IMG/VR virus record: IMGVR_UViG_3300045988_122718
Span: 64,001-128,000 of that record
Length of the DNA stretch: 64,000 nucleotides
Source of the DNA: a virus
Reading direction: 5' to 3' (one strand)
In this document: piece after piece, positions 9,677 to 61,318 of the stretch
Layout of the letters: the number at the start of each line of letters is the position of its first letter
Numbering within the stretch: the first letter of the stretch is position 1
Made by a program: the position numbers and the translations under genes
The notes under the pieces: model-generated
The model's database searches: none
What the model saw: the letters and a program-made list of their open reading frames with translations, nothing else
What the model was told of the DNA's origin: nothing

Positions 9677-12600
9677 ATGATATTACCTAAAGACTTATTG
9701 TCAGAGAGTTATAGAAAACCAAAGGTTATATTGTGTCAAACAAACAAGGATAAAATTTGTCAATTAGATGCAACAGGACTGACTGGAACCTTTAAGTTTA
9801 ATAGCTATAGTGAAATTTCATTTAATGTTGCCTCTATTTATCATGATTTAATTACTGGTGAACAAAAGCGTACTCCATATTATGATTATATTGAAGGGCT
9901 TAGATTAGTTTATCTTGAAGGCTTTGGATACTTTCAGCTTCAGAATCCAGAGTTATATAGTGATGGTATTCAGGAATATAAACAAATAAATGCTTATTCT
10001 TTGGAGTATACACTATCTCAAAAATATCTAGAAACATTTATTATAAATAAGGGAGATGTAGGAGATACAATCGGCAGTATTGATGGAGCTGTTTTATATA
10101 ACCCATTAGATGTTGACCATAGTTTGCTTCATCTTGTATTACAAAAGGCATACGGTTGGACTATTGGACATGTTGATGATGAATTAGCATCACAAAGCCG
10201 TAGTTTCGAAGTTGATAGAGAGTCTATTTATGATTTTATCATGAATGATATGTGCGATACATTTAAATGTTATGTTGAATTTGATACTATCAACAATACA
10301 GTAAATGTGTATTCTGAAAATGAAATTGAGCGCTTTATCGGAGATGGAGAAACAGATACGTTTAAATTATCAAATGGGATTTCTGAAACTACTACTGTTA
10401 CCATCAATGGTCATGTAGTTACACAGTATAAATACAATGAAGATACAAAAGAGCTAATACTTACTCCTGCTCCGGCTCAAGGAGATATTGTAGAGGTTAC
10501 GGATGAATTCAAGCACAAATATGACACAGATATAATTATTGCATTTGAAAATCTGTCAAATGAAATGAAAGTAAACTATTCTTCAGATGATATAAAGACA
10601 GTTCTTACGGTAAAAGGCGCAGACGACTTAGACATTCGTAATGTTAATTTTGGATTGCCTACAATTATGAATCTTGACTACTATTGTACTCCAGAATGGA
10701 TGGGCGAGAAGCTTTATAATGAATACCTTTCATATGTTGACAAACAAGATAAATATATGAGCGGATTCTATAGTAGAGACATTGCAGGTTCTACAGAGGA
10801 AACATTTAATGTTGAAACAACTAAAGAAAGTTTTGTTGTTGGTAACACGCAAGAATTTATAGCAAAAGGATCACAAGAATCTTTTAACGCAAATGGTGAT
10901 GTGTCATATTTTAATATAGATAAAGCACAAGTAACTTATCAGATAAATAGTGTAGTTGAAAAATTAGATGTCAAGGCAGAATCAATGGTATTTGTTCAGC
11001 CAAAACTTTTATCAGAGAAGCATACTGTTGAGCTTGATGAAAAAACATTTATTCTTAAAAATAAAATTATTGTTCCAAAAGATACGAAGGTTTATGTTAA
11101 TGACGAAGAAATAAACGAAAATCAGTATGAATATGATGCTAATAAAAAAGAGTTGACAATTGTTGATGATTCACTTCAATTATCGACGGGAGATATAATT
11201 AAGATAGAAACACCAGAAAATAGCATTCAAACTAATTTTATCTTTGACAATCCTGATAACAAAAATATAGTCGTTAAAGTTAACGGAGAAGAAACTGAAA
11301 AATATGAAACTAACACAACCGGATTAAAAATTGCTGACGATGCAATTTTAAACTATGGAGACACTGTTATTGTAGAATTGATTGATAACAAGTTCAATTT
11401 AAGTAGTACAAAAGATAGAATTATTTCTGTAACTGTAAACGATAGAGATGTGGAGAAATATATTAGGAACGGAAACGTCTTATCTATAACCGACAATAGT
11501 TTGCGTAGTGGTAATATAGTTTCTGTAAAGTCTGTTGGCACAGAAAATACTATTGATTTGTCTCAACATAAAGATAAGGTTGTTGTATCTGTTAGTGTTG
11601 GTGAGAATGAAATTGATTCATATACATTAGAAAATTATAGGCTAACAGTTAATTATGAAGTCAGCCCTGGTGATGAAATAGTTGTTAAGTTGGTCAACAA
11701 CAAATTCGCTGTGCCTCAAGTAAAAGACAGAATATTGTCAGCCGAGATTGATTCTAATAACATCCAAGATTATTCTTTTTCTTTTATTAATGACGTACTA
11801 ACCATCAATGAATTGAAAGCTCTATACAATGGCACACAAGTTATATTGAAGTCTGTTGACGAATACTTTATTTTAAATAAAGAAGGCAGGGCTACATCTG
11901 TTTTTATTGATGGTATAGAAATTGGTGATAGTGAGTTTGATTATGATGATAATAAGTTAACTATCACATCAAATGTAATAACACCAGAAAGCAATATAAT
12001 AGTAGAGTTTGTAGGCACCTCTTTTCATTTAACCATAAGTGGAAGAATTAGTTCTGTTAGTATCAATGGAAAGAAAATAGAAAATTATAGCTTTGATGAA
12101 TCAAAAAGAATGTTAATTATTGATGATGAAAGTTTAATTTCGAATTGTAAAGTTAGTGTAGAAATAATTAACAATATGTTTTATTTATCAAATGTTCAGG
12201 AAAATGTGTCGTTATATGTTTATATTAATGGAATAGAAACGAAAAATTATGAACTTAAAAATAATGAATTAACTATAAAAGACACTCTGAAAATAAAAGA
12301 TACTGTGTCTGCTGAATATACAGACAACCATTTCCAAATATCGGGAGATATTGGATTAAGGCATGTAGTCGAAAAAGAATCGTCAGATGGTTCTTCCGAA
12401 AGTATTCAAGAAGGAACCGGATATGAATATGATGATACTACTAAAATATTAACAATCAATATTCCTCTTAAAAATGGAGAAAAAATAGTAGTTAAAAACA
12501 TTGATACTACAAACGCTTTAAGAGTCGTTCAATCAAATGCAAAAGAAGGAGAAATCCTGCTTGAAGATGTAACCCCAACATTGAAGTCATATGAACCAAA

Positions 12601-40680: not shown

Positions 40681-40697
40681 AAATTAATTTTGTACTG

Positions 40698-44172: not shown

Positions 44173-44199
44173 AAAAATAGGGGAGACTTTCGTCTCCCC
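44173..44199 (-). terminator. rho-independent terminator between the tRNA island and the glyA RBS
   Basis: In - sense: GGGGAGAC-GAAA-GTCTCCCC followed by TATTTTT, then AAGGAG and the glyA ATG. Confidence 0.7.
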
Positions 44200-44202
44200 T
44201 TA

Positions 44203-44364: not shown

Positions 44365-45120
44365 CTATATATCAAATTCTTTGTGTCTACCACAATCTCT
44401 TGATAACCACGTTATATTTCTTTTACCATTACCTTTGTTTGCTCCTCTATATGTAGGAGTTAATGAATGACAATTAGGGCATAACAATGTTAAATTTTCT
44501 TCTTTATTATTTGTTGCATCTCCATCAATATGTTCTATTTCAAGTGGCAAAGTTCCAGTATATGGATTAATTTCACTCCACCCACATTTTGCACATTTAT
44601 TTTCGTATTTATCAAAAATATATTTTTTAATAGACGAAGATAGGTCTATCCATTTATCACCTGTTAATCCATCCCATTCTCCATCTTTCCATTGTTTTAT
44701 TTTTTGTTTATATCTATATTCATTAAAACATTTTGCAGAACAATATTTATTTTTCTTAGGTATTTCTTTATTACAATTAATACAATAATGATGTCCTACT
44801 TTCTTTTTTCTATGTTGGTTGCTATATGTCACAGAGCATGAACGGGAACAAAACTCAATTCTTTTAAAATCACTATTTTTTTGATTATATTTTTGCGAGA
44901 TTTCTTTCCCACAATTTTTACAAAACTTAATATCTAATTCTTCTTTAATGTGCGGACATTTTTCAATCATACAATATTTTATTGTAGATAATTGCTTTTC
45001 AAATGTTTTATGACACCCATCACATTCTACAATATATATAGTATGATTGTCTTTTGTTCTTTTGTCAGATATCCCTATTATTGTATAACATCCATATTTT
45101 TCTCCTATGTGTTTATCCAT
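44365..45120 (-). CDS. HNH endonuclease (multi-Zn-ribbon N-terminus)
   Basis: The C-terminus LEIEHIDGDATNNKEENLTLLCPNCHS is an HNH core. It is embedded in the tRNA array. Confidence 0.8.
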   Translation of the reverse strand: MDKHIGEKYGCYTIIGISDKRTKDNHTIYIVECDGCHKTFEKQLSTIKYCMIEKCPHIKEELDIKFCKNCGKEISQKYNQKNSDFKRIEFCSRSCSVTYSNQHRKKKVGHHYCINCNKEIPKKNKYCSAKCFNEYRYKQKIKQWKDGEWDGLTGDKWIDLSSSIKKYIFDKYENKCAKCGWSEINPYTGTLPLEIEHIDGDATNNKEENLTLLCPNCHSLTPTYRGANKGNGKRNITWLSRDCGRHKEFDI

Positions 45121-45152: not shown

Positions 45153-45284
45153 TGGTGGGCCTGGAGGAACTCGAATCCTCGACCAATAGCTTAATGGTGG
45201 GAATGGCAGGTGCTGCCCCTACTTGCAAAAGCTTTTCTGAATACACCCCCAAGGCTACTGCTCTACCTACTGAGCTACAGACCC
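45153..45284 (-). tRNA. tRNA-Lys(UUU) interrupted by a 56-nt tRNA-like minihelix
   Basis: GGGTCTG-TA-GCTC..GAGC-A-GTAGC-CTT[56 nt]TTAA-GCTAT-TGGTC-GAGGA-TTCGAGT-TCCTC-CAGGCCC-A-CCA. The length is 76 nt after removal, and the body resembles bacterial tRNA-Lys. Confidence 0.8.
45195..45250 (-). ncRNA. nested tRNA-like minihelix (intron candidate) in tRNA-Lys
   Basis: GGGGGTG-(21 nt)-GTAGG-GGCAGCA-CCTGC-CATTCCC-A-CCA: a 7-bp acceptor-like helix (2 G-U), a 5-bp stem, a 7-nt GGCAGNA loop, a discriminator and CCA. Confidence 0.7.
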
Positions 45285-46001: not shown

Positions 46002-46124
46002 TGGCAGGGGTAGCAGGGTTCGAACCTACGATGCGGGAGTCTGGTCAAGGTAGTTGGTACTGCCCCAACTAAATTCACTTGAATACCTTGAAAGTCCCGT
46101 GCCTTACCACTTGGCTATACCCCT
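46002..46124 (-). tRNA. tRNA-Gln(UUG) interrupted by a 49-nt tRNA-like minihelix
   Basis: AGGGGTA-TA-GCC-AAGTGGTAA-GGC-A-CGGGA-CTTT[49 nt]GAC-TCCCG-CATC-GTAGG-TTCGAAC-CCTGC-TACCCCT-G-CCA. The body resembles bacterial tRNA-Gln (GCCAAG.GGUAAGGCA, weak 1-72 pair, G73). Confidence 0.8.
46042..46090 (-). ncRNA. nested tRNA-like minihelix (intron candidate) in tRNA-Gln
   Basis: CAAGGTA-TTCAAGTGAATTTA-GTTGG-GGCAGTA-CCAAC-TACCTTG-A-CCA. Confidence 0.7.
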
Positions 46125-46457: not shown

Positions 46458-46661
46458 TTAATCTAATGTTTTTCCAGTTGCTAATTCAAAAATTAAATTA
46501 TCAACACAAGGAATGTGCATTACCTCTCTCTCATATTGAGTACGATGTTCAATATCATTAATATAGATAGGACAATCTTTACATTCTACATTTTCACAAA
46601 AACGAACAGCTTTTTCTACTACTTTAGAATTCGCAAATTTTATATATTCTTCCCAACGCAT
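46458..46661 (-). CDS. hypothetical Cys-containing protein
   Basis: ORF with a GGAGG RBS (ATG at 46661) directly downstream of a pseudoknot motif. Confidence 0.5.
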   Translation of the reverse strand: MRWEEYIKFANSKVVEKAVRFCENVECKDCPIYINDIEHRTQYEREVMHIPCVDNLIFELATGKTLD

Positions 46662-46678: not shown

Positions 46679-46709
46679 GAGCAGTTTATACAGTGATACT
46701 CAGCACTAT
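46679..46709 (-). ncRNA. H-type pseudoknot motif, copy 1
   Basis: In - sense: ATAGTG-CT-GAGTA-T-CACTGT-ATAAAC-TGCTC. Both stems pair, with G-U pairs valid only in - sense. Confidence 0.55.
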
Positions 46710-46762
46710 CCGTCTGGGTTCCAATATTAGAACCGTCCACAATTGAGTTTTGACCACCATAG

Positions 46763-46837
46763 TGGAGCTGATGGAGAATTTCGAAATCTCGACCTAGTGA
46801 TTACAAATCACTCGCTCTGCCTCTGAGCTACACCAGC
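46763..46837 (-). tRNA. tRNA-Thr(UGU)
   Basis: GCTGGTG..AGTGA-TTTGTAA-TCACT..T-arm GAGAT-TTCGAAA-TTCTC (one mismatch)-CATCAGC-T-CCA. Confidence 0.8.
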
Positions 46838-46891
46838 AGATCTCCTCGTCTTTCCGAGGTGTCAATCACACTTTTACATTAATAATCTTAA

Positions 46892-46920
46892 ATTATTCTT
46901 TAATAGGAAGATGACGTCAA
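46892..46920 (-). promoter_or_regulatory. candidate sigma-A promoter inside the tRNA island
   Basis: TTGACG (46915-46920), 17 nt spacer, AATAAT (46892-46897). It is enclosed by the inverted repeat AATCACAC/GTGTGATT. Confidence 0.4.
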
Positions 46921-46943
46921 TCTGTGTGATTACCTTTTATGTG

Positions 46944-47012
46944 AGGTCTTAATTGGAATCGAACCAACACCTGCCCTACCATAGGGCCGATCTACCATTG
47001 AACTATAAGACC
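46944..47012 (-). tRNA. aberrant tRNA-like gene (anticodon arm GCCCT-ATGGT-AGGGC, 5-nt loop); identity undetermined
   Basis: The acceptor (GGTCTTA/TAAGACC), D-arm and T-arm (GTTGG-TTCGATT-CCAAT) are canonical. The anticodon loop is 2 nt short. Confidence 0.45.
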
Positions 47013-47015
47013 TAT

Positions 47016-47092
47016 GGTGACGCTACCGGGGATCGAACCCGGACACTCCACGGTGAAAGCGTGGTAACTCTACCAATTCGTCCATAGCGCCA
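47016..47092 (-). tRNA. tRNA-Glu(UUC)
   Basis: GGCGCTA..CCACG-CTTTCAC-CGTGG..CCGGG-TTCGATC-CCCGG-TAGCGTC-A-CCA. Confidence 0.85.
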
Positions 47093-47099
47093 TATCTTT

Positions 47100-47130
47100 G
47101 GACAGTTTATACAGTGATGTCCAGCACTGT
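47100..47130 (-). ncRNA. H-type pseudoknot motif, copy 2
   Basis: In - sense: ACAGTG-CT-GGACA-T-CACTGT-ATAAAC-TGTCC. It ends 8 nt before the tRNA-Glu 5' end. Confidence 0.6.
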
Positions 47131-47142
47131 CACTTTTGGGAG

Positions 47143-47227
47143 TGGTAGCGGTGGTGGGCTACGATCCCACACGTCATAAGACATTGGTTTTTGAGACCAA
47201 CCTGTCTACCTGTTCCAGCACACCGCC
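47143..47227 (-). tRNA. tRNA-Leu(CAA), class II
   Basis: GGCGGTG..TTGGT-CTCAAAA-ACCAA, a long variable arm, GTGGG-ATCGTAG-CCCAC-CACCGCT-A-CCA. Confidence 0.8.
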
Positions 47228-47434
47228 ATATTAAGCACAACCTACACTGAGCTAGCCTCGCTCACACTTGCTTTCCCGAACACGTCCCACCCTCGGTTAT
47301 GCTTTGATATTGTTTATCCTATTTTCACAATAACATATGCCTCGTTCTCTTCTTGTTACTGTGGGTCAGTAACTTAGTAGCTTTTCTCTTGTGGATAGCA
47401 CTTATCAATACACCGAGAACCCCAATAGGCGGCA
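47228..47434 (-). ncRNA. unassigned structured non-coding block (207 nt)
   Basis: No ORF. Long-range pairs are GCCT...AGGC and GTTCTC...GAGAAC. Hairpins are GTTACTG-ACCCA-CAGTAAC and TGAGC-GAGGCTA-GCTCA. A D-arm-like TAGCTCAGTGTAGG lies at the 3' end. Confidence 0.3.
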
Positions 47435-47511
47435 TGGTTGCGTGAGGTTAGATTTGAACTAACGATCTTCAGCTTATGGGGCTGACGAGATGACCACTTC
47501 TCTACTCCGCA
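47435..47511 (-). tRNA. tRNA-Met/Ile2(CAU) with C33 and a bulged acceptor stem
   Basis: TGCGGAG-TA-GAGA-AGTGGTCA-TCTC-G-TCAGC-CCCATAA-GCTGA-AGATC-GTTAG-TTCAAAT-CTAAC-CTC(A)CGCA-A-CCA. Confidence 0.6.
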
Positions 47512-47515
47512 GTAT

Positions 47516-47546
47516 CTAGCAGACTATAATGCCGTCTGCTATGGCA
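47516..47546 (-). ncRNA. spacer pseudoknot between tRNA-Ile and tRNA-Met
   Basis: In - sense: ATGCC-A-TAGCAGAC-GGCAT-TATA-GTCTGCTA. It has two interleaved perfect stems. Confidence 0.45.
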
Positions 47547-47566
47547 TCAGAAAGAGGTGTTGCATG

Positions 47567-47719
47567 TGGTCCCCTACCGGTGGATTGAACACCGAACCTC
47601 CCGATTATTGGCCTCCTCAGTAAGTCCTGCCCTTACATCTCTAAATCCTGCTGTTTAGTAGTTCTACTATTAAACTATGAGGAGAAGTCGGGTGCTCTAG
47701 CCAGTTGAGCTAGCAGGGG
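47567..47719 (-). tRNA. tRNA-Ile(UAU) interrupted by a 76-nt tRNA-like element
   Basis: CCCCTGC-TA-GCTC..GAGC-A-CCCGA-CTT[76 nt]ATAA-TCGGG-AGGTT-CGGTG-TTCAATC-CACCG-GTAGGGG-A-CCA. The length is 77 nt after removal. Confidence 0.75.
47609..47684 (-). ncRNA. nested full-length tRNA-like element (intron candidate) in tRNA-Ile
   Basis: CTCCTCA-TA-GTT-TAATAGTAG-AAC-TA-CTAAA-CAGCAGGA-TTTAG-AGAT-GTAAG-GGCAGGA-CTTAC-TGAGGAG-G-CCA. It is cloverleaf-sized, with an 8-nt anticodon-like loop and a GGCAGGA T-loop. Confidence 0.65.
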
Positions 47720-48133
47720 ATATATAATCCGGCTTTTACGGTACGACCAGTAAGATGGACGCGCTTGAATTTCACAATTGCCTAGCGTTTCAGGTACTTT
47801 TTAGGAGTTTGGATGTAATACCTTATCCATTCACGCATAGTCCATTAGTACCATGGGCTATAGGACTCACTCCAAGTGGCCGGATTCAACTCCCCTGTAA
47901 ATTCAGGTCTTCCTATCCCCTACCCTTGAAGGATGTTTACCATACTTTTATACCGCTGGCACACATCAGGCGGCTGTGGTAATGATAGCAAGCGGAGCCG
48001 TGCATGACTCCATTTCATAGTGTTTCGTCAATTGCCTTCAGCTCATCCAAGTAATATCAACAGTTAGCAAATTCTGTCGAGAGCTTATTCTCATCGGTAA
48101 TCACTTATGAAATTTGCACTACTCACTATCATC
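47720..48133 (-). ncRNA. large unassigned structured non-coding block (414 nt)
   Basis: It is visibly GC-richer than the flanks, has no credible ORF or RBS, and lies between tRNA-Asn and tRNA-Ile. Its 3' ~55 nt are repeated at 48291-48345. Confidence 0.35.
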
Positions 48134-48210
48134 TGGCGGGAGTAGAAGGACTTGAACCTACGACATCTTGCTTAACAGGCAAGCGCTCTAACCAACTGAG
48201 CTATACTCCC
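48134..48210 (-). tRNA. tRNA-Asn(GUU)
   Basis: GGGAGTA..CTTGC-CTGTTAA-GCAAG..GTAGG-TTCAAGT-CCTTC-TACTCCC-G-CCA. Confidence 0.85.
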
Positions 48211-48213
48211 AAA

Positions 48214-48290
48214 TGGCGACCCATACCAGACTTGAACTGGTGTCCTCTTGCGTGACAGGCAAGCGTGATACTCTTCTTCACCAATGGGCC
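48214..48290 (-). tRNA. tRNA-Asp(GUC)
   Basis: GGCCCAT..CTTGC-CTGTCAC-GCAAG..ACCAG-TTCAAGT-CTGGT-ATGGGTC-G-CCA. Confidence 0.85.
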
Positions 48291-48408
48291 ATATTATGCC
48301 GGCTTTTACGGCATATTTAGCTAGAATATGCTTGAATTCCACAAAAGATGTTTTCTCTATATTAGACACAGTTATTCCCCGGTAGAAAATCTAACACCCG
48401 CTGCGTCT

Positions 48409-48493
48409 TGGTGGGCCAGGTTGGTGTCAATCCAACTACTCTCGAAGGAAACGGATTTACAATCCGCCGCGTTTGCCGATTCGCTACTGACCC
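48409..48493 (-). tRNA. tRNA-Tyr(GUA), class II
   Basis: GGGTCAG..GCGGA-TTGTAAA-TCCGT, a long variable arm, GTTGG-ATTGACA-CCAAC-CTGGCCC-A-CCA. Confidence 0.85.
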
Positions 48494-48550
48494 ATATAAC
48501 TATACTTTAGTATTTTGTTTTAATGTTTGAGAATTACTTGCCAAGGTCAA

Positions 48551-48683
48551 TGGTGCGGGTAGCGAGACTCGAACTCGCACGGATATTTCACCGAGGGATT
48601 TTTGGTGGATATTGTAGGTACTGCCCCTACCAAAGCACTTGCTATACCCAAGTCCCTTATGTCTGCCATTCCATCATACCCGC
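48551..48683 (-). tRNA. tRNA-Leu(UAA), class II, interrupted by a 47-nt tRNA-like minihelix
   Basis: GCGGGTA..A-AGGGA-CTT[47 nt]AAAA-TCCCT-CGGTGAAATATCCGT-GCGAG-TTCGAGT-CTCGC-TACCCGC-A-CCA. The length is 86 nt after removal. AAGGGA.UUAAAAUCCCUCGG matches bacterial tRNA-Leu(UAA). Confidence 0.8.
48603..48649 (-). ncRNA. nested tRNA-like minihelix (intron candidate) in tRNA-Leu
   Basis: GGGTATA-GCAAGTGCTTTG-GTAGG-GGCAGTA-CCTAC-AATATCC-A-CCA. Confidence 0.7.
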
Positions 48684-48691
48684 ATATCACA

Positions 48692-48721
48692 GGGCAGCTT
48701 TAAGGTGATGCCCAGCACCAT
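48692..48721 (-). ncRNA. H-type pseudoknot motif, copy 3
   Basis: In - sense: ATGGTG-CT-GGGCA-T-CACCTT-AAAGC-TGCCC. It ends 8 nt before the tRNA-Leu(UAA) 5' end and lies just after the stop of the TROVE-like gene. Confidence 0.55.
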
Positions 48722-48731
48722 ACTTAACTCC

Positions 48732-50285
48732 TTAAGAGTTCTTCAATGCGGCTTCCACCGCATCATATCTATCACTCATAAGCGTCTCAACTAGACACTC
48801 ATAAGGATCGGGTTTACCACTCATAACCATCTTGCAAACATTAGTGGAGAATCCGCTAACAAGAGCAACACCAAGGTCATTCTCCTTTACATGAATAGTT
48901 CCAGTGCGAGAATTTACATTCCAGAAGACTAGTCTAGGCATCTTATACCCAGCATACTCGAAACGCTTTTTGATCACATTAAAAAGTCTTGCATTAGGTC
49001 TATTAATACCATATCTAGCGGAACCATCACATGTTGCACAAGAGTCAAACTCCATGTCTGAAATAATGAGTACATTCTTAGGCATATCCTCTTGCTTCAT
49101 ACGACCATTTACCGCAGTAGTAAGAATCAAATCAAACACCTTTTCAATGTTTGTATTCGAACACTCGTCATGACCATACGCAACACATAACTTATCTCTC
49201 AGAGAATCGCACTGACTAAAATCAACCAACTGAGGTCTGCTAGAGAAAGTAATATATTTATCTTTAAAGTCTCCAGAAGAATGTTCTGCAAAGTAAATTG
49301 CAAGTGCATTTGCAACTTCAAGTGCAGTAACACGGCTACTTTCACCAACGTTACAACACATAGAAGCAGAACCATCTGCAACTACAATGGTGTTTCCACA
49401 CTCATTTACTGTATCAGGCAAAGCCCTCCAAAGAGATTCAAGAGTTGCATCATACTTGTTGACATAATTATTCCATCCAATTGTGTTAGAATACTTATGT
49501 ACAATGTCGTGAGGGAACAAAGTTCTAGCATTAATCTTAGTTTCACCATTTTCAAGCTTACTTAGATACTCTCTGCGACGCTCCTTATCATTACGAAGGA
49601 AAGCTCCGTTATAAATGAGATTTGCACGAGAAGGAACCGTTTCGTACTTAATGTCTCCCCATTTCTTTGCAGACATCTTACTTTCTACAATGTCAATGTA
49701 AGAACGCAGAGAAGAAAGAATCTTACGATACTTACGCTCTGTCATTCCAAGATTCTTGCAAATGTATCTTGCATCCATCTTAGTTTTTGCAGAAGAAGCA
49801 TTCACAGAAGGAAGCCACTTTGCAAGAAGAGATACGGGCTTATTATCAGCCATATTTGCAATGTCATCGGTGAGCTGCTTTTTGATGATGTCAAGAATAA
49901 CACCATCTACATCTGTTCCAAACAGACACCATAGGTCATCATAACGACCATACTCACTCACTAGAGGAGCAAGATGCTTAACAATGTCAACGTCATCCTT
50001 TACCATATTCTTAAGAATCACTCTGAACAAATGTCTCTCACCAAGACCACCATGAACATCTCTGGCGAAGAACAGCCAACGTAGAGCCATCATTTTATCT
50101 TCAAAATAAGCCTTAGTAAACTTATTATAGATATTCTCCTCACTCATACCACGCATAGAAGAAACTGCAAAGTTTAGGTCAACCAGTTCCTTACCAGAGG
50201 TACGATACCCAAGAGCGCCATTCTCAGTTACTGAATAGTTGAAATCCTCGTTCAGAGTATTCTTTACTGCATTCATAAAAGACAT
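48732..50285 (-). CDS. TROVE/DUF2828-like + vWA domain protein (Ro60-related candidate)
   Basis: The N-terminus VTENGALGYRTSGKELVDLNF...RWLFFARDVHGGLGER resembles DUF2828/TROVE. The C-terminal half has the vWA MIDAS motif VVADGSASM (D-x-S-x-S). A GGAGG RBS precedes the ATG at 50285. The size is Ro60-like. Confidence 0.6.
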   Translation of the reverse strand: MSFMNAVKNTLNEDFNYSVTENGALGYRTSGKELVDLNFAVSSMRGMSEENIYNKFTKAYFEDKMMALRWLFFARDVHGGLGERHLFRVILKNMVKDDVDIVKHLAPLVSEYGRYDDLWCLFGTDVDGVILDIIKKQLTDDIANMADNKPVSLLAKWLPSVNASSAKTKMDARYICKNLGMTERKYRKILSSLRSYIDIVESKMSAKKWGDIKYETVPSRANLIYNGAFLRNDKERRREYLSKLENGETKINARTLFPHDIVHKYSNTIGWNNYVNKYDATLESLWRALPDTVNECGNTIVVADGSASMCCNVGESSRVTALEVANALAIYFAEHSSGDFKDKYITFSSRPQLVDFSQCDSLRDKLCVAYGHDECSNTNIEKVFDLILTTAVNGRMKQEDMPKNVLIISDMEFDSCATCDGSARYGINRPNARLFNVIKKRFEYAGYKMPRLVFWNVNSRTGTIHVKENDLGVALVSGFSTNVCKMVMSGKPDPYECLVETLMSDRYDAVEAALKNS

Positions 50286-50530
50286 TTTCTTTCCTCCATT
50301 TTTTTGATTTATTTCTAAATCCCAAGACACATTATTATGTACAATCTCCACATTAAAAATTTGCTGTTAGTGTCTTTGGAGTTTATTCAACGAGACGCCA
50401 AAATAAAACCATTAGTAAAAATATCATTTTCATCTTTTTAAATTACTGTAAGCGTCTCTATGTAAGGCAAGGCACCATCAATACAAATCCATATCATATT
50501 ATGTAAAGTTGCTGTTAGTGCCTTTTTAAA

Positions 50531-50648
50531 GTCTCCTGACAGGACTTGAACCTGCGACCTCTGGTTTAACAGACCAATTAGAAACTTGCTATTTAAGGCT
50601 TTTACAAGTCTCGTTATTAAGCGCTCTATCCGACTGAGCTACAGGAGA
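50531..50648 (-). tRNA. tRNA-Asn(GUU) copy with a 44-nt insertion between the D-arm and anticodon stem
   Basis: TCTCCTG-TA-GCTC-AGTCGGATA-GAGC-G-[44 nt]-TTGGT-CTGTTAA-ACCAG-AGGTC-GCAGG-TTCAAGT-CCTGT-CAGGAGA-C. No CCA is encoded. Confidence 0.55.
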
Positions 50649-50657
50649 CATATTTAT

Positions 50658-50685
50658 GAGCAGTTTAACGAGGTGCTCGGCTCAC
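50658..50685 (-). ncRNA. H-type pseudoknot motif, copy 4 (in the 5' leader of the tRNA-Asn transcript)
   Basis: In - sense: AGTGAG-CC-GAGCA-C-CTCGTT-AAAC-TGCTC. Stem 2 uses two G-U pairs that are valid only in - sense. Confidence 0.5.
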
Positions 50686-50686
50686 T

Positions 50687-50731
50687 TTAATTTTGTACTG
50701 TGATTATACCACAGATTACTTATTTTGTCAA
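50687..50731 (-). promoter_or_regulatory. sigma-A promoter + leader box driving the tRNA-Asn copy
   Basis: TTGACA (50726-50731), 17 nt spacer, TGGTATAAT (-10 at 50703-50708), then ACAGTACAAAATTAA (50687-50701). Confidence 0.65.
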
Positions 50732-61274: not shown

Positions 61275-61318
61275 TTAATTTTGTACGGTTATTATATCAT
61301 AAAATTTGGATTTGTCAA
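61275..61318 (-). promoter_or_regulatory. sigma-A promoter + leader-box variant
   Basis: TTGACA (61313-61318), 16 nt spacer, TGATATAAT (-10 at 61291-61296), then ACCGTACAAAATTAA (61275-61289). Confidence 0.65.

Follow-up and report, generated by a model that had tools for sequence, protein, structure and literature searches.

Why would a virus set the same small RNA fold, several times over, directly in front of its tRNA genes? The question is raised by a 64,000-nucleotide (nt) stretch of viral DNA, positions 64,001 to 128,000 of the IMG/VR record IMGVR_UViG_3300045988_122718 (hereafter, the window), in which four related sequences of the minus strand can each be drawn as a compact pseudoknot. 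An initial annotation of this DNA had pointed to the four copies and to paired changes in their stems. The element is an H-type pseudoknot with covariation in both stems, and it is functional in the minus sense. All four copies are embedded in a single 6.5-kb minus-strand operon that extends from a promoter at 50731 to a terminator-like hairpin at 44200-44179.

The four window copies share one layout. A 6-nt strand of helix P1 (P1a) is followed by a two-nucleotide loop 1 (L1) of sequence CY, the 5′ strand of helix P2 (P2a, GRRYA), one pyrimidine, the second strand of P1 (P1b), an A-rich linker that constitutes loop 3 (L3) and the second strand of P2 (P2b, UGYYC). Copy A (50658-50686, minus strand) reads AGUGAG-CC-GAGCA-C-CUCGUU-AAAC-UGCUC, with P1 formed by 50686-50681 and 50672-50667, L1 (CC) at 50680-50679, P2 formed by 50678-50674 and 50662-50658, the junction C at 50673 and L3 (AAAC) at 50666-50663. 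Copy B (48692-48721, minus strand; AUGGUG-CU-GGGCA-U-CACCUU-AAAGC-UGCCC) has one U·U mismatch in P1, where the ortholog in the related locus L012, AAAGUG/CACUUU, restores pairing. Copies C (47100-47130) and D (46679-46709), both on the minus strand as well, read ACAGUG-CU-GGACA-U-CACUGU-AUAAAC-UGUCC and AUAGUG-CU-GAGUA-U-CACUGU-AUAAAC-UGCUC, respectively. The units are 29-31 nt long and are dispersed, 400-2000 nt apart. Their covariance model scores are 38.3 (A), 41.4 (B), 37.3 (C) and 39.9 bits (D), and a model that encodes the P1 pairs alone recovers exactly these four copies within the window. The positions and the order of segments agree with the initial annotation, which had written the layout as S2-CY-S1-Y-S2′-A-rich-S1′, except that copy A is one base longer at its 5′ end (50686, not 50685). 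Its assignment of the functional form to minus-strand RNA also stands: because the wobble pairs are G·U in the minus sense only, the copies are read as RNA of the strand that is co-oriented with the tRNAs.

On its own, the H-type topology arises often by chance: the window contains about 190 matches to it. A strict descriptor that combines the shared loops with the P2 pattern returned five matches, compared with a mean of 0.085 and a maximum of 2 in 200 dinucleotide-preserving shuffles of the window. The fifth match (30189-30216) is weak, with G·U-rich pairing, and is taken to be a chance occurrence. A probable decayed copy is found at 48520-48551 (minus strand; AUUGAC-CU-UGGCA-A-GUAAUU...), fused to the CCA end of tRNA-Leu(UAA). 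It has lost the 3′ strands of both P1 and P2, and the covariance model gives no match there in the window; its counterpart is intact in the relatives L002, L045 and L079 (AUUGAC-CU-UGGCA-A-GUCAUU-AAAC-UGCCA).

A megablast search with the operon found no relatives among cultured phages. Relatives were collected instead from IMG/VR, 44 loci via the DUF2828 protein encoded in the operon and 37 via a DNA pattern; they form a clade of phage contigs, mostly of 80-170 kb, that carry the element at the same sites. The covariance model encodes P1 as pairs and leaves P2 unencoded, which makes P2 an independent test. This P1-only model identified 85 copies in the phage-group loci, 39 of them distinct. 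In the alignment of the 39 distinct sequences, P1 is paired in 91% and P2 in 95% of the cases, with changes on both sides in nine of the ten pairs, and none of 500 shuffles reached the observed paired fraction or covariation score. Sliding the partner columns of this alignment by 1-3 positions lowers pairing to 30-56%. The orthologs of site A illustrate the compensation, as P1 changes by lineage from GUGAG/CUCGU to AGUUC/GAACU, AGCUC/GAGUU and AGAG/CUCU. At this site the pseudoknot is retained while the downstream tRNA varies between lineages.

The element extends far beyond this clade. Scanning IMG/VR with the commonest P2 and the loops fixed, and with P1 free, located it in at least 120 loci from contigs of many unrelated metagenomes, with up to three matches a locus. 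All 139 matches listed have at least three contiguous P1 pairs, and the estimated chance expectation is about 7% of the matches. Among these loci, the window-derived model identified copies in 82, a wide set of 148 copies, of which 138 are distinct. Among the latter P2 is 98% paired, the three inner variable pairs of P1 show four to six pair types with 0-15 unpaired cells, and again none of 500 shuffles reached the observed values. The covariation in both stems that had been described from four copies is thus borne out in both larger alignments. Many of the copies have P2 variants that fall outside the scan pattern (AAGCA/UGCUU, GGGCA/UGCCC, GGACA/UGUCC, AGACA/UGUCU, GAACA/UGUUC, UAGCA/UGCUA and GAGUA/UACUC), and the family size from these pattern-limited scans is a lower bound.

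A 32-nt BLAST query representing one common P1 variant placed the element in 52 GenBank phage records. It was read directly in Lentibacter phage ICBM1, Mycobacterium phage Labelle, Arthrobacter phage Molivia, Paracoccus phage ParMal1, Vibrio phage D456, Synechococcus phage S-EIVl, an Acutalibacteraceae phage and the crAss-like phage cr7_1. The carriers therefore comprise phages of Alpha- and Gammaproteobacteria, Actinobacteria, Cyanobacteria and Firmicutes, in addition to a crAss-like phage, and the copy number ranges from one in the genome (ICBM1) to at least eight in 14.6 kb (L148, for which blastn found no relatives). A pattern scan of 596 Gb of bacterial genomes detected no chromosomal copy with that pattern; 28 of the 29 matches are chance occurrences in GC-rich coding sequences. 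The sole real match, of the window-group type, lies on the 147-kb contig L082 (USJD01000001.1, 147,435 bp), which is binned with a Prevotella metagenome-assembled genome and is taken to be a phage. Its TTGACA/TATAAT promoters and GGAGG ribosome-binding sites look Firmicutes-type, so that the Prevotella bin may not reflect the true host. A tRNA starts within 12 nt downstream of only eight of the 148 wide-set copies. This proportion, 5.4%, is close to a rough estimate of the share of tRNAs among downstream features, and a special enrichment before tRNAs in the wide set was therefore rejected; only the 4-8-nt spacing of these cases is notable. The link to tRNA genes is a local feature of the window's phage group, and the family is a general intergenic element of many unrelated phages.

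Individual members of the wide family show further peculiarities. In L148 (3300-9200) and the related L112, L120, L168, L184, L185 and L226, the pseudoknot is present in many intergenic gaps, and a sequence like AAAAAUUUUCGACCCG recurs after some copies of this group, perhaps as a phage-specific promoter or some other signal. The copy of cr7_1 (L234, 1501-1527) lies inside a permuted transfer-messenger RNA (tmRNA) predicted by ARAGORN. In L169, a copy at 11363-11391 is followed 95 nt downstream by an Rfam match to tmRNA (11486-11558, 47.3 bits). In L077 (914-1010), the T-arm-like sequence GUGGGUUCGAAUCCCAC follows one of three clustered copies.

The family consensus is A-[NNWC]-CU-GAGCA-Y-[GWNN]-NNAAAC-UGCUC-A, with a length of 27-31 nt. 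P1 is usually 4 bp long (6 bp in the window); its sequence is free, and in most cases a C-G pair closes it. In the 138 distinct sequences the first base of L1 is always C (138/138), the second is U in 134, and P2 opens with a G-C pair in 123. At the junction, U, A and C all occur and G never does. L3 usually spans 6 nt and terminates in AAAC; in a subclass it ends in AAAAG, followed by GCUC. P1 and the 3′ strand of the pseudoknot are separated by 4-9 nt. The base directly after the pseudoknot is A in 100 of 135 cases, and a purine was scored there in 71%. The commonest 3′ trinucleotide is ACC (11.5% vs 1.2% background), RYY accounts for 40% vs 10%, and G at +2 or +3 is depleted (11% vs 40% background) with C and U enriched; an ACC tail was present in six of the nine cultured or otherwise individually read examples. 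The flanks contain no conserved extra helices or sequence, and the 45 nt downstream are unstructured (mean z = −0.07, mean ΔG = −4.5 kcal/mol).

Placement follows equally strict rules. None of 101 cases examined for overlap with an open reading frame (ORF) showed any, and the orientation is always that of the flanking genes. The distance from the upstream stop codon to the pseudoknot peaks at 5-6 nt with a minimum of 2, and is 5-9 nt in 36 of 101 cases. Given the dimensions of the ribosomal mRNA channel, a structure much nearer to the stop than about 5-6 nt would be opened by the terminating ribosome. The modal distance to a downstream start codon is 20 nt, which places the Shine-Dalgarno sequence about 7 nt away. 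Where a wide-set copy precedes a tRNA (n = 8), the spacing is 4-8 nt, and in Molivia 6 nt separate the stop codon from the pseudoknot and 3 nt the pseudoknot from tRNA-Gly. Among the copies in long intergenic regions, 12 lie close to the upstream stop and 14 close to the downstream start. Because either flank is favored about equally, the element is an autonomous module, and a tie to one flank only was rejected. The downstream genes are functionally unrelated to one another.

Within the window, all copies occupy non-coding spacers, three of the four without an ORF directly upstream. Copies A, B and C end exactly 8 nt before the 5′ end of a tRNA (50649, 48683 and 47091, respectively), where 8-9 nt had been annotated. 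The tRNA after copy A (50530-50649, minus strand, 42.3 bits) has an insertion of about 40 nt and is readable as Asn-GUU, whereas ARAGORN calls Thr-GGU with an intron; that after copy B (48551-48683, minus strand, 39.7 bits) is tRNA-Leu(UAA) with a 47-nt insertion in the anticodon loop; and that after copy C (47015-47091, minus strand) is tRNA-Glu(UUC). The annotated tRNA identities are acceptable on this evidence. The 5′ end of copy A is about 11 nt downstream of the predicted transcription start. Copy B is separated by 10 nt from the UAA stop of the preceding DUF2828/DUF7788 gene. Copy C is located between two tRNAs, 12 nt past the 3′ end of tRNA-Leu(CAA). Copy D lies between tRNA-Thr, 53 nt upstream, and the small ORF 46458-46661 (minus strand; 67 amino acids, Cys-rich, without a family match), and as annotated it precedes the ribosome-binding site of that ORF, the GGAGG (46671-46667) being 7 nt downstream. 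The pseudoknot is kept before the homologous ORF in relatives, though the spacer and the Shine-Dalgarno sequence differ.

The motif matches no known RNA class. Rfam detected no family at the motif sites, either at E ≤ 10 (window region and three canonical copies) or at the gathering score (window and 12 loci), and the scans returned only tRNAs, one tmRNA and noise. The Rfam search that the initial annotation had suggested thus leaves the motif unassigned even at E ≤ 10. A description of the motif was likewise not found in Rfam 15 or, by sequence strings and descriptors, in the searchable literature; the motif could still be one of the bulk candidates, roughly 8,500 and without names, in PMC10690425.

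The small H-type riboswitches preQ1-I (RF00522) and SAM-II/SAM-V resemble the element in having an A-rich 3′ loop. In preQ1-I riboswitches, the loop between P2 and P1 is 4-6 nt long and contains the ligand-pairing C, P2 is 3-4 bp long and formed over the Shine-Dalgarno sequence or a terminator, and queuosine genes follow downstream. In the phage element, in contrast, the junction is 1 nt (U, A or C), P2 has 5 bp, the Shine-Dalgarno sequence is free and the downstream genes are diverse. No covariance-model match was obtained for SAM-II/SAM-V, fluoride, guanidine-III or the other Rfam pseudoknot riboswitches. The kinship to preQ1-I or SAM-II that had been considered at the outset is not upheld, given the missing Rfam match, the 1-nt junction, the missing expression platform and the unrelated genes; a riboswitch was rejected on the lack of an expression platform, of a coherent gene set and of an Rfam match.

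The element has the architecture of the luteovirus −1 frameshifting pseudoknots of beet western yellows virus (BWYV), potato leafroll virus and pea enation mosaic virus: these too are compact, their L1 is 2 nt long and opens with C, and a single junction nucleotide and an A-rich L3 complete the fold. In BWYV a single junction pyrimidine is extruded, and the A-rich loop of 6-7 nt lies in the minor groove of a stem 1 of 4-5 bp. The viral frameshifters differ in their location inside an ORF, 5-9 nt after a slippery heptamer and with an overlapping −1 frame, whereas the phage element is untranslated, and in a P2 of 3 bp rather than 5 bp. The luteoviral-type architecture, namely the CY L1, the single junction pyrimidine and the A-rich loop, suggests that the invariant loop bases serve tertiary triples rather than a ligand. 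By analogy, in part with PDB 1F27 and BWYV, a variable P1 combined with a conserved L1 C, a 5-bp P2, a non-G junction and an AAAC L3 would form a rigid stack of about 10-12 bp.

Other likenesses are more partial. The coremin exonuclease-resistant RNA (xrRNA) comprises a short hairpin whose first loop nucleotide is C or U and a CUAC-like spacer that pairs back to produce a BWYV-like fold (Dilweg et al. 2023, PMC10321173). The invariant L1 C and the AAAC-U(G/A)C of the phage element are reminiscent of this arrangement and of the coremin spacer, whereas the coremin loop consensus (YGAD/YGNNAD) and its 3-bp S2 are not reproduced; S2 of coremin has at most three, partly non-canonical pairs as compared with a 5-bp Watson-Crick P2, and the required downstream hairpin hp2 is not present in the 45 nt downstream of the phage element. 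The coremin spacer is reportedly UUAAACUAC, which resembles the ...GUCAUUAAACUACCA of window-group copies. The tRNA-like structures of the turnip yellow mosaic virus (TYMV) type are a natural precedent: their acceptor stem is mimicked by a pseudoknot that RNase P cleaves, with a U on the 5′ side of the cleavage site and a tail of the A-C-C type. Those structures are about 80 nt long, located at the genome 3′ end, complete tRNA mimics and aminoacylated; the phage element, in contrast, is 27-31 nt, internal and multi-copy, without a T- or anticodon-arm mimic, and neither ARAGORN nor the Rfam tRNA model calls the window pseudoknots as tRNA. In the MALAT1/MEN-β transcripts, in which a triple helix precedes mascRNA, and in mitochondrial tRNA punctuation, RNase P defines the 3′ end of the upstream RNA. 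The order of ORF stop, stable triplex structure, a few nucleotides and tRNA recurs at copy B and in Molivia. These eukaryotic and organellar systems are unrelated in sequence and fold, and most phage copies have no tRNA after them.

Several further identities were tried and rejected. Type III (ToxI-like) antitoxins are tandem direct repeats of 34-45 nt beside an endoribonuclease toxin gene; the window copies are dispersed, with a 29-31-nt unit, and no toxin gene is seen beside them. The tmRNA pseudoknot PK1, which belongs inside a tmRNA ahead of the resume codon, was dismissed as there is no tmRNA in the window. The pistol ribozyme (RF02679), in which P2/P3 with a G-U cleavage strand join the P1 hairpin and pseudoknot, has no Rfam match, and the 4-9 nt available leave no room for its P2 and P3. 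DNA-level signals (promoter, operator, attC-like or N4-type hairpin) were rejected because the helices interleave, the G·U pairs are strand-specific and the orientation constantly follows the flanking genes.

The features conserved beyond the needs of folding all cluster at the open end of P2: the U, the G-C pair, the unpaired A and the C/U-rich, G-free tail. This end resembles the cleavage site of a precursor tRNA. Kosek et al. 2025 (PMC12710915) reported that RNase P RNA of E. coli, of type B and of archaea cuts an H-type pseudoknot, C8-N9/G10-A11-G12...C30-U31-C32, exactly at its L1/S2 junction (marked by the slash). No cut is made without a 3′ RCC tail, U is favored at −1, and in-vivo pseudoknot targets are called an open question (PMC12710915). 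The substrate, pPK, is the biotin-binding aptamer pseudoknot (PDB 1F27) with a 3′ GCCAC tail (PMC12710915). The phage element shares with pPK a 2-nt L1 starting with C, the pairing of G-A-G with C-U-C in the corresponding helix, in some copies a purine discriminator with a C-rich tail, and the U preferred at −1; its U at N−1 (134/138) and G-C first pair (123/138) are those of RNase P pseudoknot substrates and tRNA-like acceptor mimics. PDB 1F27 presumably also has a 5-2-5-1-5-7-5 layout with a junction pyrimidine and an A-rich third loop, as in the phage element. The differences are that pPK is a product of in-vitro selection with an engineered tail, whereas the phage element is natural and transcript-internal, and that in the latter the fourth P2 pair is flipped (C-G, not G-C), L3 ends in AAAC and RCC is in the minority.

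The element probably marks points at which long transcripts of the phage are either cut or protected. From these resemblances we tentatively propose, with well under even confidence, that this triplex-type pseudoknot is a cis-acting, tRNA-like punctuation mark addressed to RNase P of the host or to other enzymes that process RNA ends. At its open end, P2 would imitate the precursor-tRNA context, with U at −1 (the last base of L1), the pair G1-C72, A73 and a C/U-rich, G-free 74-75, and host tRNA-processing nucleases would read it as a miniature acceptor arm. RNase P would cut between U and G at the L1/P2 junction, and trailer nucleases would perhaps act just past the A-C-C tail. In this way long polycistronic transcripts would be divided at fixed intergenic positions into pieces whose ends are structured and resist decay, and the 3′ product, for example, would start with a 5′-terminal P2 hairpin. 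In the window, the element would delimit units of the tRNA operon and leave either 7 nt before a Shine-Dalgarno sequence or exactly the 8-nt single-stranded leader (−1 to −8) with which the RNase P protein makes contact. That the core is conserved across host phyla, that the element is untranslated and that its 3′ flank is accessible would all be explained by a universal enzyme. The 5-6-nt stop spacing, the lack of ORF overlap and the unstructured 3′ flank indicate that the element must stay folded and accessible. The tight tRNA spacing (8 nt in the window, 4-8 nt in the wide set, 3 nt in Molivia) counts in favor of a link with tRNA processing. Of the roles entertained in the initial annotation, that of a processing, stability or protein-binding signal appears to agree with the direction of this evidence.

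A number of observations weigh against recognition by RNase P. The RCC tail is a minority feature (ACC in 11.5%) that all four window copies lack, their 3′ tails being AAAG, AUAA, UGUG and GUUU. The A at +1 and the avoidance of G at +2/+3 can also be explained structurally, by pairing of the A with the L1 uridine and by competition of a G with P1. The model pseudoknot is a poor RNase P substrate in vitro, hundreds of times slower than a hairpin (PMC12710915), and the enzyme would be better served by a simple minihelix that carries RCCA. There also seems little need for a second RNase P site where a genuine tRNA begins 8 nt further on, and a cut between U and G would leave the 3′ end of the upstream cistron unprotected. 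RNase P does not account for the invariant L1 C, the inner P2 pairs and AAAC, which need a separate structural argument. Cutting of the element by this enzyme is accordingly put forward as a proposal drawn from sequence, and as a cautious one; the predicted recognition and any effect on stability are to be read in the same way.

The main rival of tRNA-like punctuation, with which it is compatible, is a passive role. The pseudoknot might be a decay barrier or insulator, a robust roadblock to directional decay between units of processed RNA that requires no specific nuclease. It could oppose 3′-to-5′ exonucleases after a downstream cut, 5′-to-3′ degradation by RNase J or 5′-end-dependent scanning by RNase E, and where the order is ORF stop, pseudoknot and tRNA it could protect the mRNA 3′ end made by RNase P, in a manner like MALAT1/mascRNA. 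The close approach to the upstream stop (peak 5-6 nt), to what follows downstream (a tRNA at 8 nt, a start codon at a modal distance of 20 nt) or to both is what such a barrier would show, as are the independent cases of a stop, 5-10 nt, pseudoknot, 3-10 nt and tRNA (copy B, Molivia, L114 and L126) and the promoter-proximal copies about 11 nt from the transcript 5′ end. The luteovirus-like architecture with its A-rich L3 resists unwinding, and the similarly shaped coremin xrRNA stalls Xrn1. However, Xrn1 is not stalled by frameshifter pseudoknots of the classical kind, and coremin depends on a downstream hairpin where no excess structure is seen here. A generic roadblock should drift, whereas L1, P2 and AAAC are nearly invariant across host phyla; the ACC-tail enrichment is not predicted; a GC-rich hairpin would be a cheaper block to 3′ exonucleases; and copies between two tRNAs or at a transcript start protect nothing obvious. 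The barrier is possible but doubtful. Unlikely, yet in keeping with a conserved core on a variable scaffold helix, as is typical of recognition elements, is a binding site for a conserved macromolecule other than a tRNA-processing nuclease. The candidates are RNA polymerase (in a miniature put- or nut-like antitermination or anti-pausing role, renewed in every intergenic region), the 30S subunit, S1 or a widespread phage protein. The lambda nut and HK022 put sites lie near operon 5′ ends, just after stop codons, and are untranslated, and the placement of the phage element near operon 5′ ends and just after stops is similar. Some phages hold many copies (at least eight in 14.6 kb of L148), and the downstream region is unstructured and pyrimidine/A-rich. 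Nevertheless, no candidate partner emerged, antitermination across an operon fits poorly with a single copy as in ICBM1, an enhancer of translation would be pointless 8 nt before tRNAs, and a phage-encoded partner would need to be conserved across very different phages.

The remaining explanations are far less probable. The variable P1 with an invariant P2 and loops is an aptamer-like pattern, and the L1/S2 junction, C-N/G-A-G...C-U-C, matches the biotin aptamer; the presumed 5-2-5-1-5-7-5 layout, junction pyrimidine and A-rich L3 of PDB 1F27 would extend that match. A small-molecule aptamer or riboswitch with its ligand at the conserved P1/P2 junction is nonetheless improbable, since there is no Rfam riboswitch match and no expression platform, a tRNA follows 8 nt downstream, the Shine-Dalgarno sequence stays free and the genes on either side are unrelated in function. 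Some phages have up to one copy per gene, unlike any riboswitch, and the L1 C, A-rich L3 and pyrimidine junction are generic to triplex pseudoknots such as that of BWYV. By the same analogy, it is quite improbable that a natural aptamer, placed in numerous intergenic gaps, couples transcript processing or stability in many phages to one cellular metabolite. A very small self-cleaving ribozyme, or part of a larger one that has not been delimited, might process phage transcripts in an equally multi-copy, intergenic, gene-independent and host-phylum-spanning pattern, as with phage hammerhead, twister and pistol ribozymes, and P1 with its loop-to-3′ pseudoknot equals the front half of the pistol fold. 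At 27-31 nt, however, the element is smaller than any natural self-cleaving ribozyme, the Rfam ribozyme models do not match it, its flanks offer no conserved helices or sequence, and it lacks the pistol P2/P3 and cleavage strand, making this explanation very improbable. Least credible is a recoding or termination-linked signal that would act on the upstream stop by read-through, frameshifting or termination-reinitiation. It is called to mind by the 5-9 nt that separate stop and pseudoknot in 36 of 101 cases, which is the spacing of recoding pseudoknots, and by the luteoviral-frameshifter architecture. Yet the stop distances have no 3-nt periodicity, three of the four window copies have no ORF upstream, many copies precede tRNAs or sit far from stops, and an extended reading frame was not seen, though none was looked for. 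Read-through and frameshifting were rejected on the missing periodicity together with the lack of ORF overlap.

The operon that houses the window copies contains about 20 tRNA genes, the DUF2828/DUF7788 gene (48732-50285, minus strand; PHROG 850, 'RNA-binding protein'), small ORFs and an HNH endonuclease gene. It begins with a consensus sigma-70-type promoter (50731-50703, minus strand), in which TTGACA (50731-50726) is separated by 17 nt from a TG-extended TATAAT (12/12 matches). A conserved initial transcribed leader, ACAAAAUUAA (50696-50687, minus strand), runs straight into copy A. The downstream boundary is an intrinsic-terminator-like hairpin (44179-44200, minus strand). The same transcribed start, ACAGU followed by ACAAAAUUAA, occurs after many consensus sigma-70-type promoters of the phage group (window and L001-L012) and leads into a Shine-Dalgarno sequence or a pseudoknot. 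Minus-strand leaders of this type begin near 61284, 57550, 53965, 50696, 35201 and 27963 of the window, and ACAAAAUUAA is also found without a recognisable −35/−10, for example near 40693.

The pseudoknot is absent near DUF2828 in a clade with about 60% DUF2828 identity, in which a different conserved structure follows the gene. In L014-L044 (except L022, L034 and L035), this apparently structured element is located about 10-80 nt after the DUF2828 stop codon. One subclade has ACGUGGCA...UGCC...CACGUACAGCAAA and the other ACGGUGACAU...AUGUCCGUG...ACAUACAGCAAA, with seemingly compensatory changes.

Insertions of 38-76 nt, placed within the anticodon loop or beside it, are present in at least five tRNA genes of the window (50530-50649, 48551-48683, 47567-47719, 46002-46124 and 45153-45284, all minus strand). 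Three of the insertions share the hairpin loop GGGGCAG(U/C)ACC, as in GUAGG-GGCAGUA-CCUAC, and end in ...CCACC or ...GACC. That of tRNA-Leu(UAA) adjoins U34, and its ortholog is uninterrupted in L007 and interrupted by 224 nt in L046 and 762 nt in L001. The insertions are too short for group I introns. The 9-mer GUAAAAGCC has three exact occurrences (47731-47739, 48301-48309 and 50597-50605, minus strand), all in the tRNA operon. Two are in the leaders of tRNA-Arg and tRNA-Asp, which have GUGRAAUUCAAGC...CCGUAAAAGCCGG in common, and the third is inside the insertion of the first tRNA; the 9-mer may represent another repeated RNA motif. A further H-type pseudoknot, a candidate distinct from the family (47517-47548, minus strand; GAUGCC-A-UAGCAGAC-GGCAUU-AUA-GUCUGCUA) ends 5 nt before tRNA-Met, with two uncompensated mismatches in the L001 ortholog that leave it weakly supported, and several other leaders of the operon contain a hairpin ending 4-12 nt before the tRNA. 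The HNH endonuclease ORF (44365-45120, minus strand) is embedded in the tRNA operon in the same way as the DUF2828/DUF7788 gene, and the window also encodes a phage RNA ligase (37473-38636). Together, these three genes suggest that the phage invests heavily in tRNA or RNA repair.

An almost invariant RNA element of 27-31 nt thus recurs between genes in phages of several bacterial phyla, and the four copies of the tRNA operon, from which it was first noticed, are a local variant of this much larger family. Its conservation across such phages implies a partner common to all bacteria. The resemblance to a precursor-tRNA cleavage site makes the question of in-vivo pseudoknot targeting by RNase P, as posed in PMC12710915, directly testable. 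Should the proposal be correct, phages would punctuate their operons with a miniature tRNA mimic, in parallel to mitochondrial punctuation, TYMV and MALAT1, and synthetic operons would gain a very short part for processing or insulation that does not depend on the host. Whether or not the mechanism is right, the family stands as a well-supported new structured RNA, and it makes hundreds of natural sequence variants available for structural and functional work.

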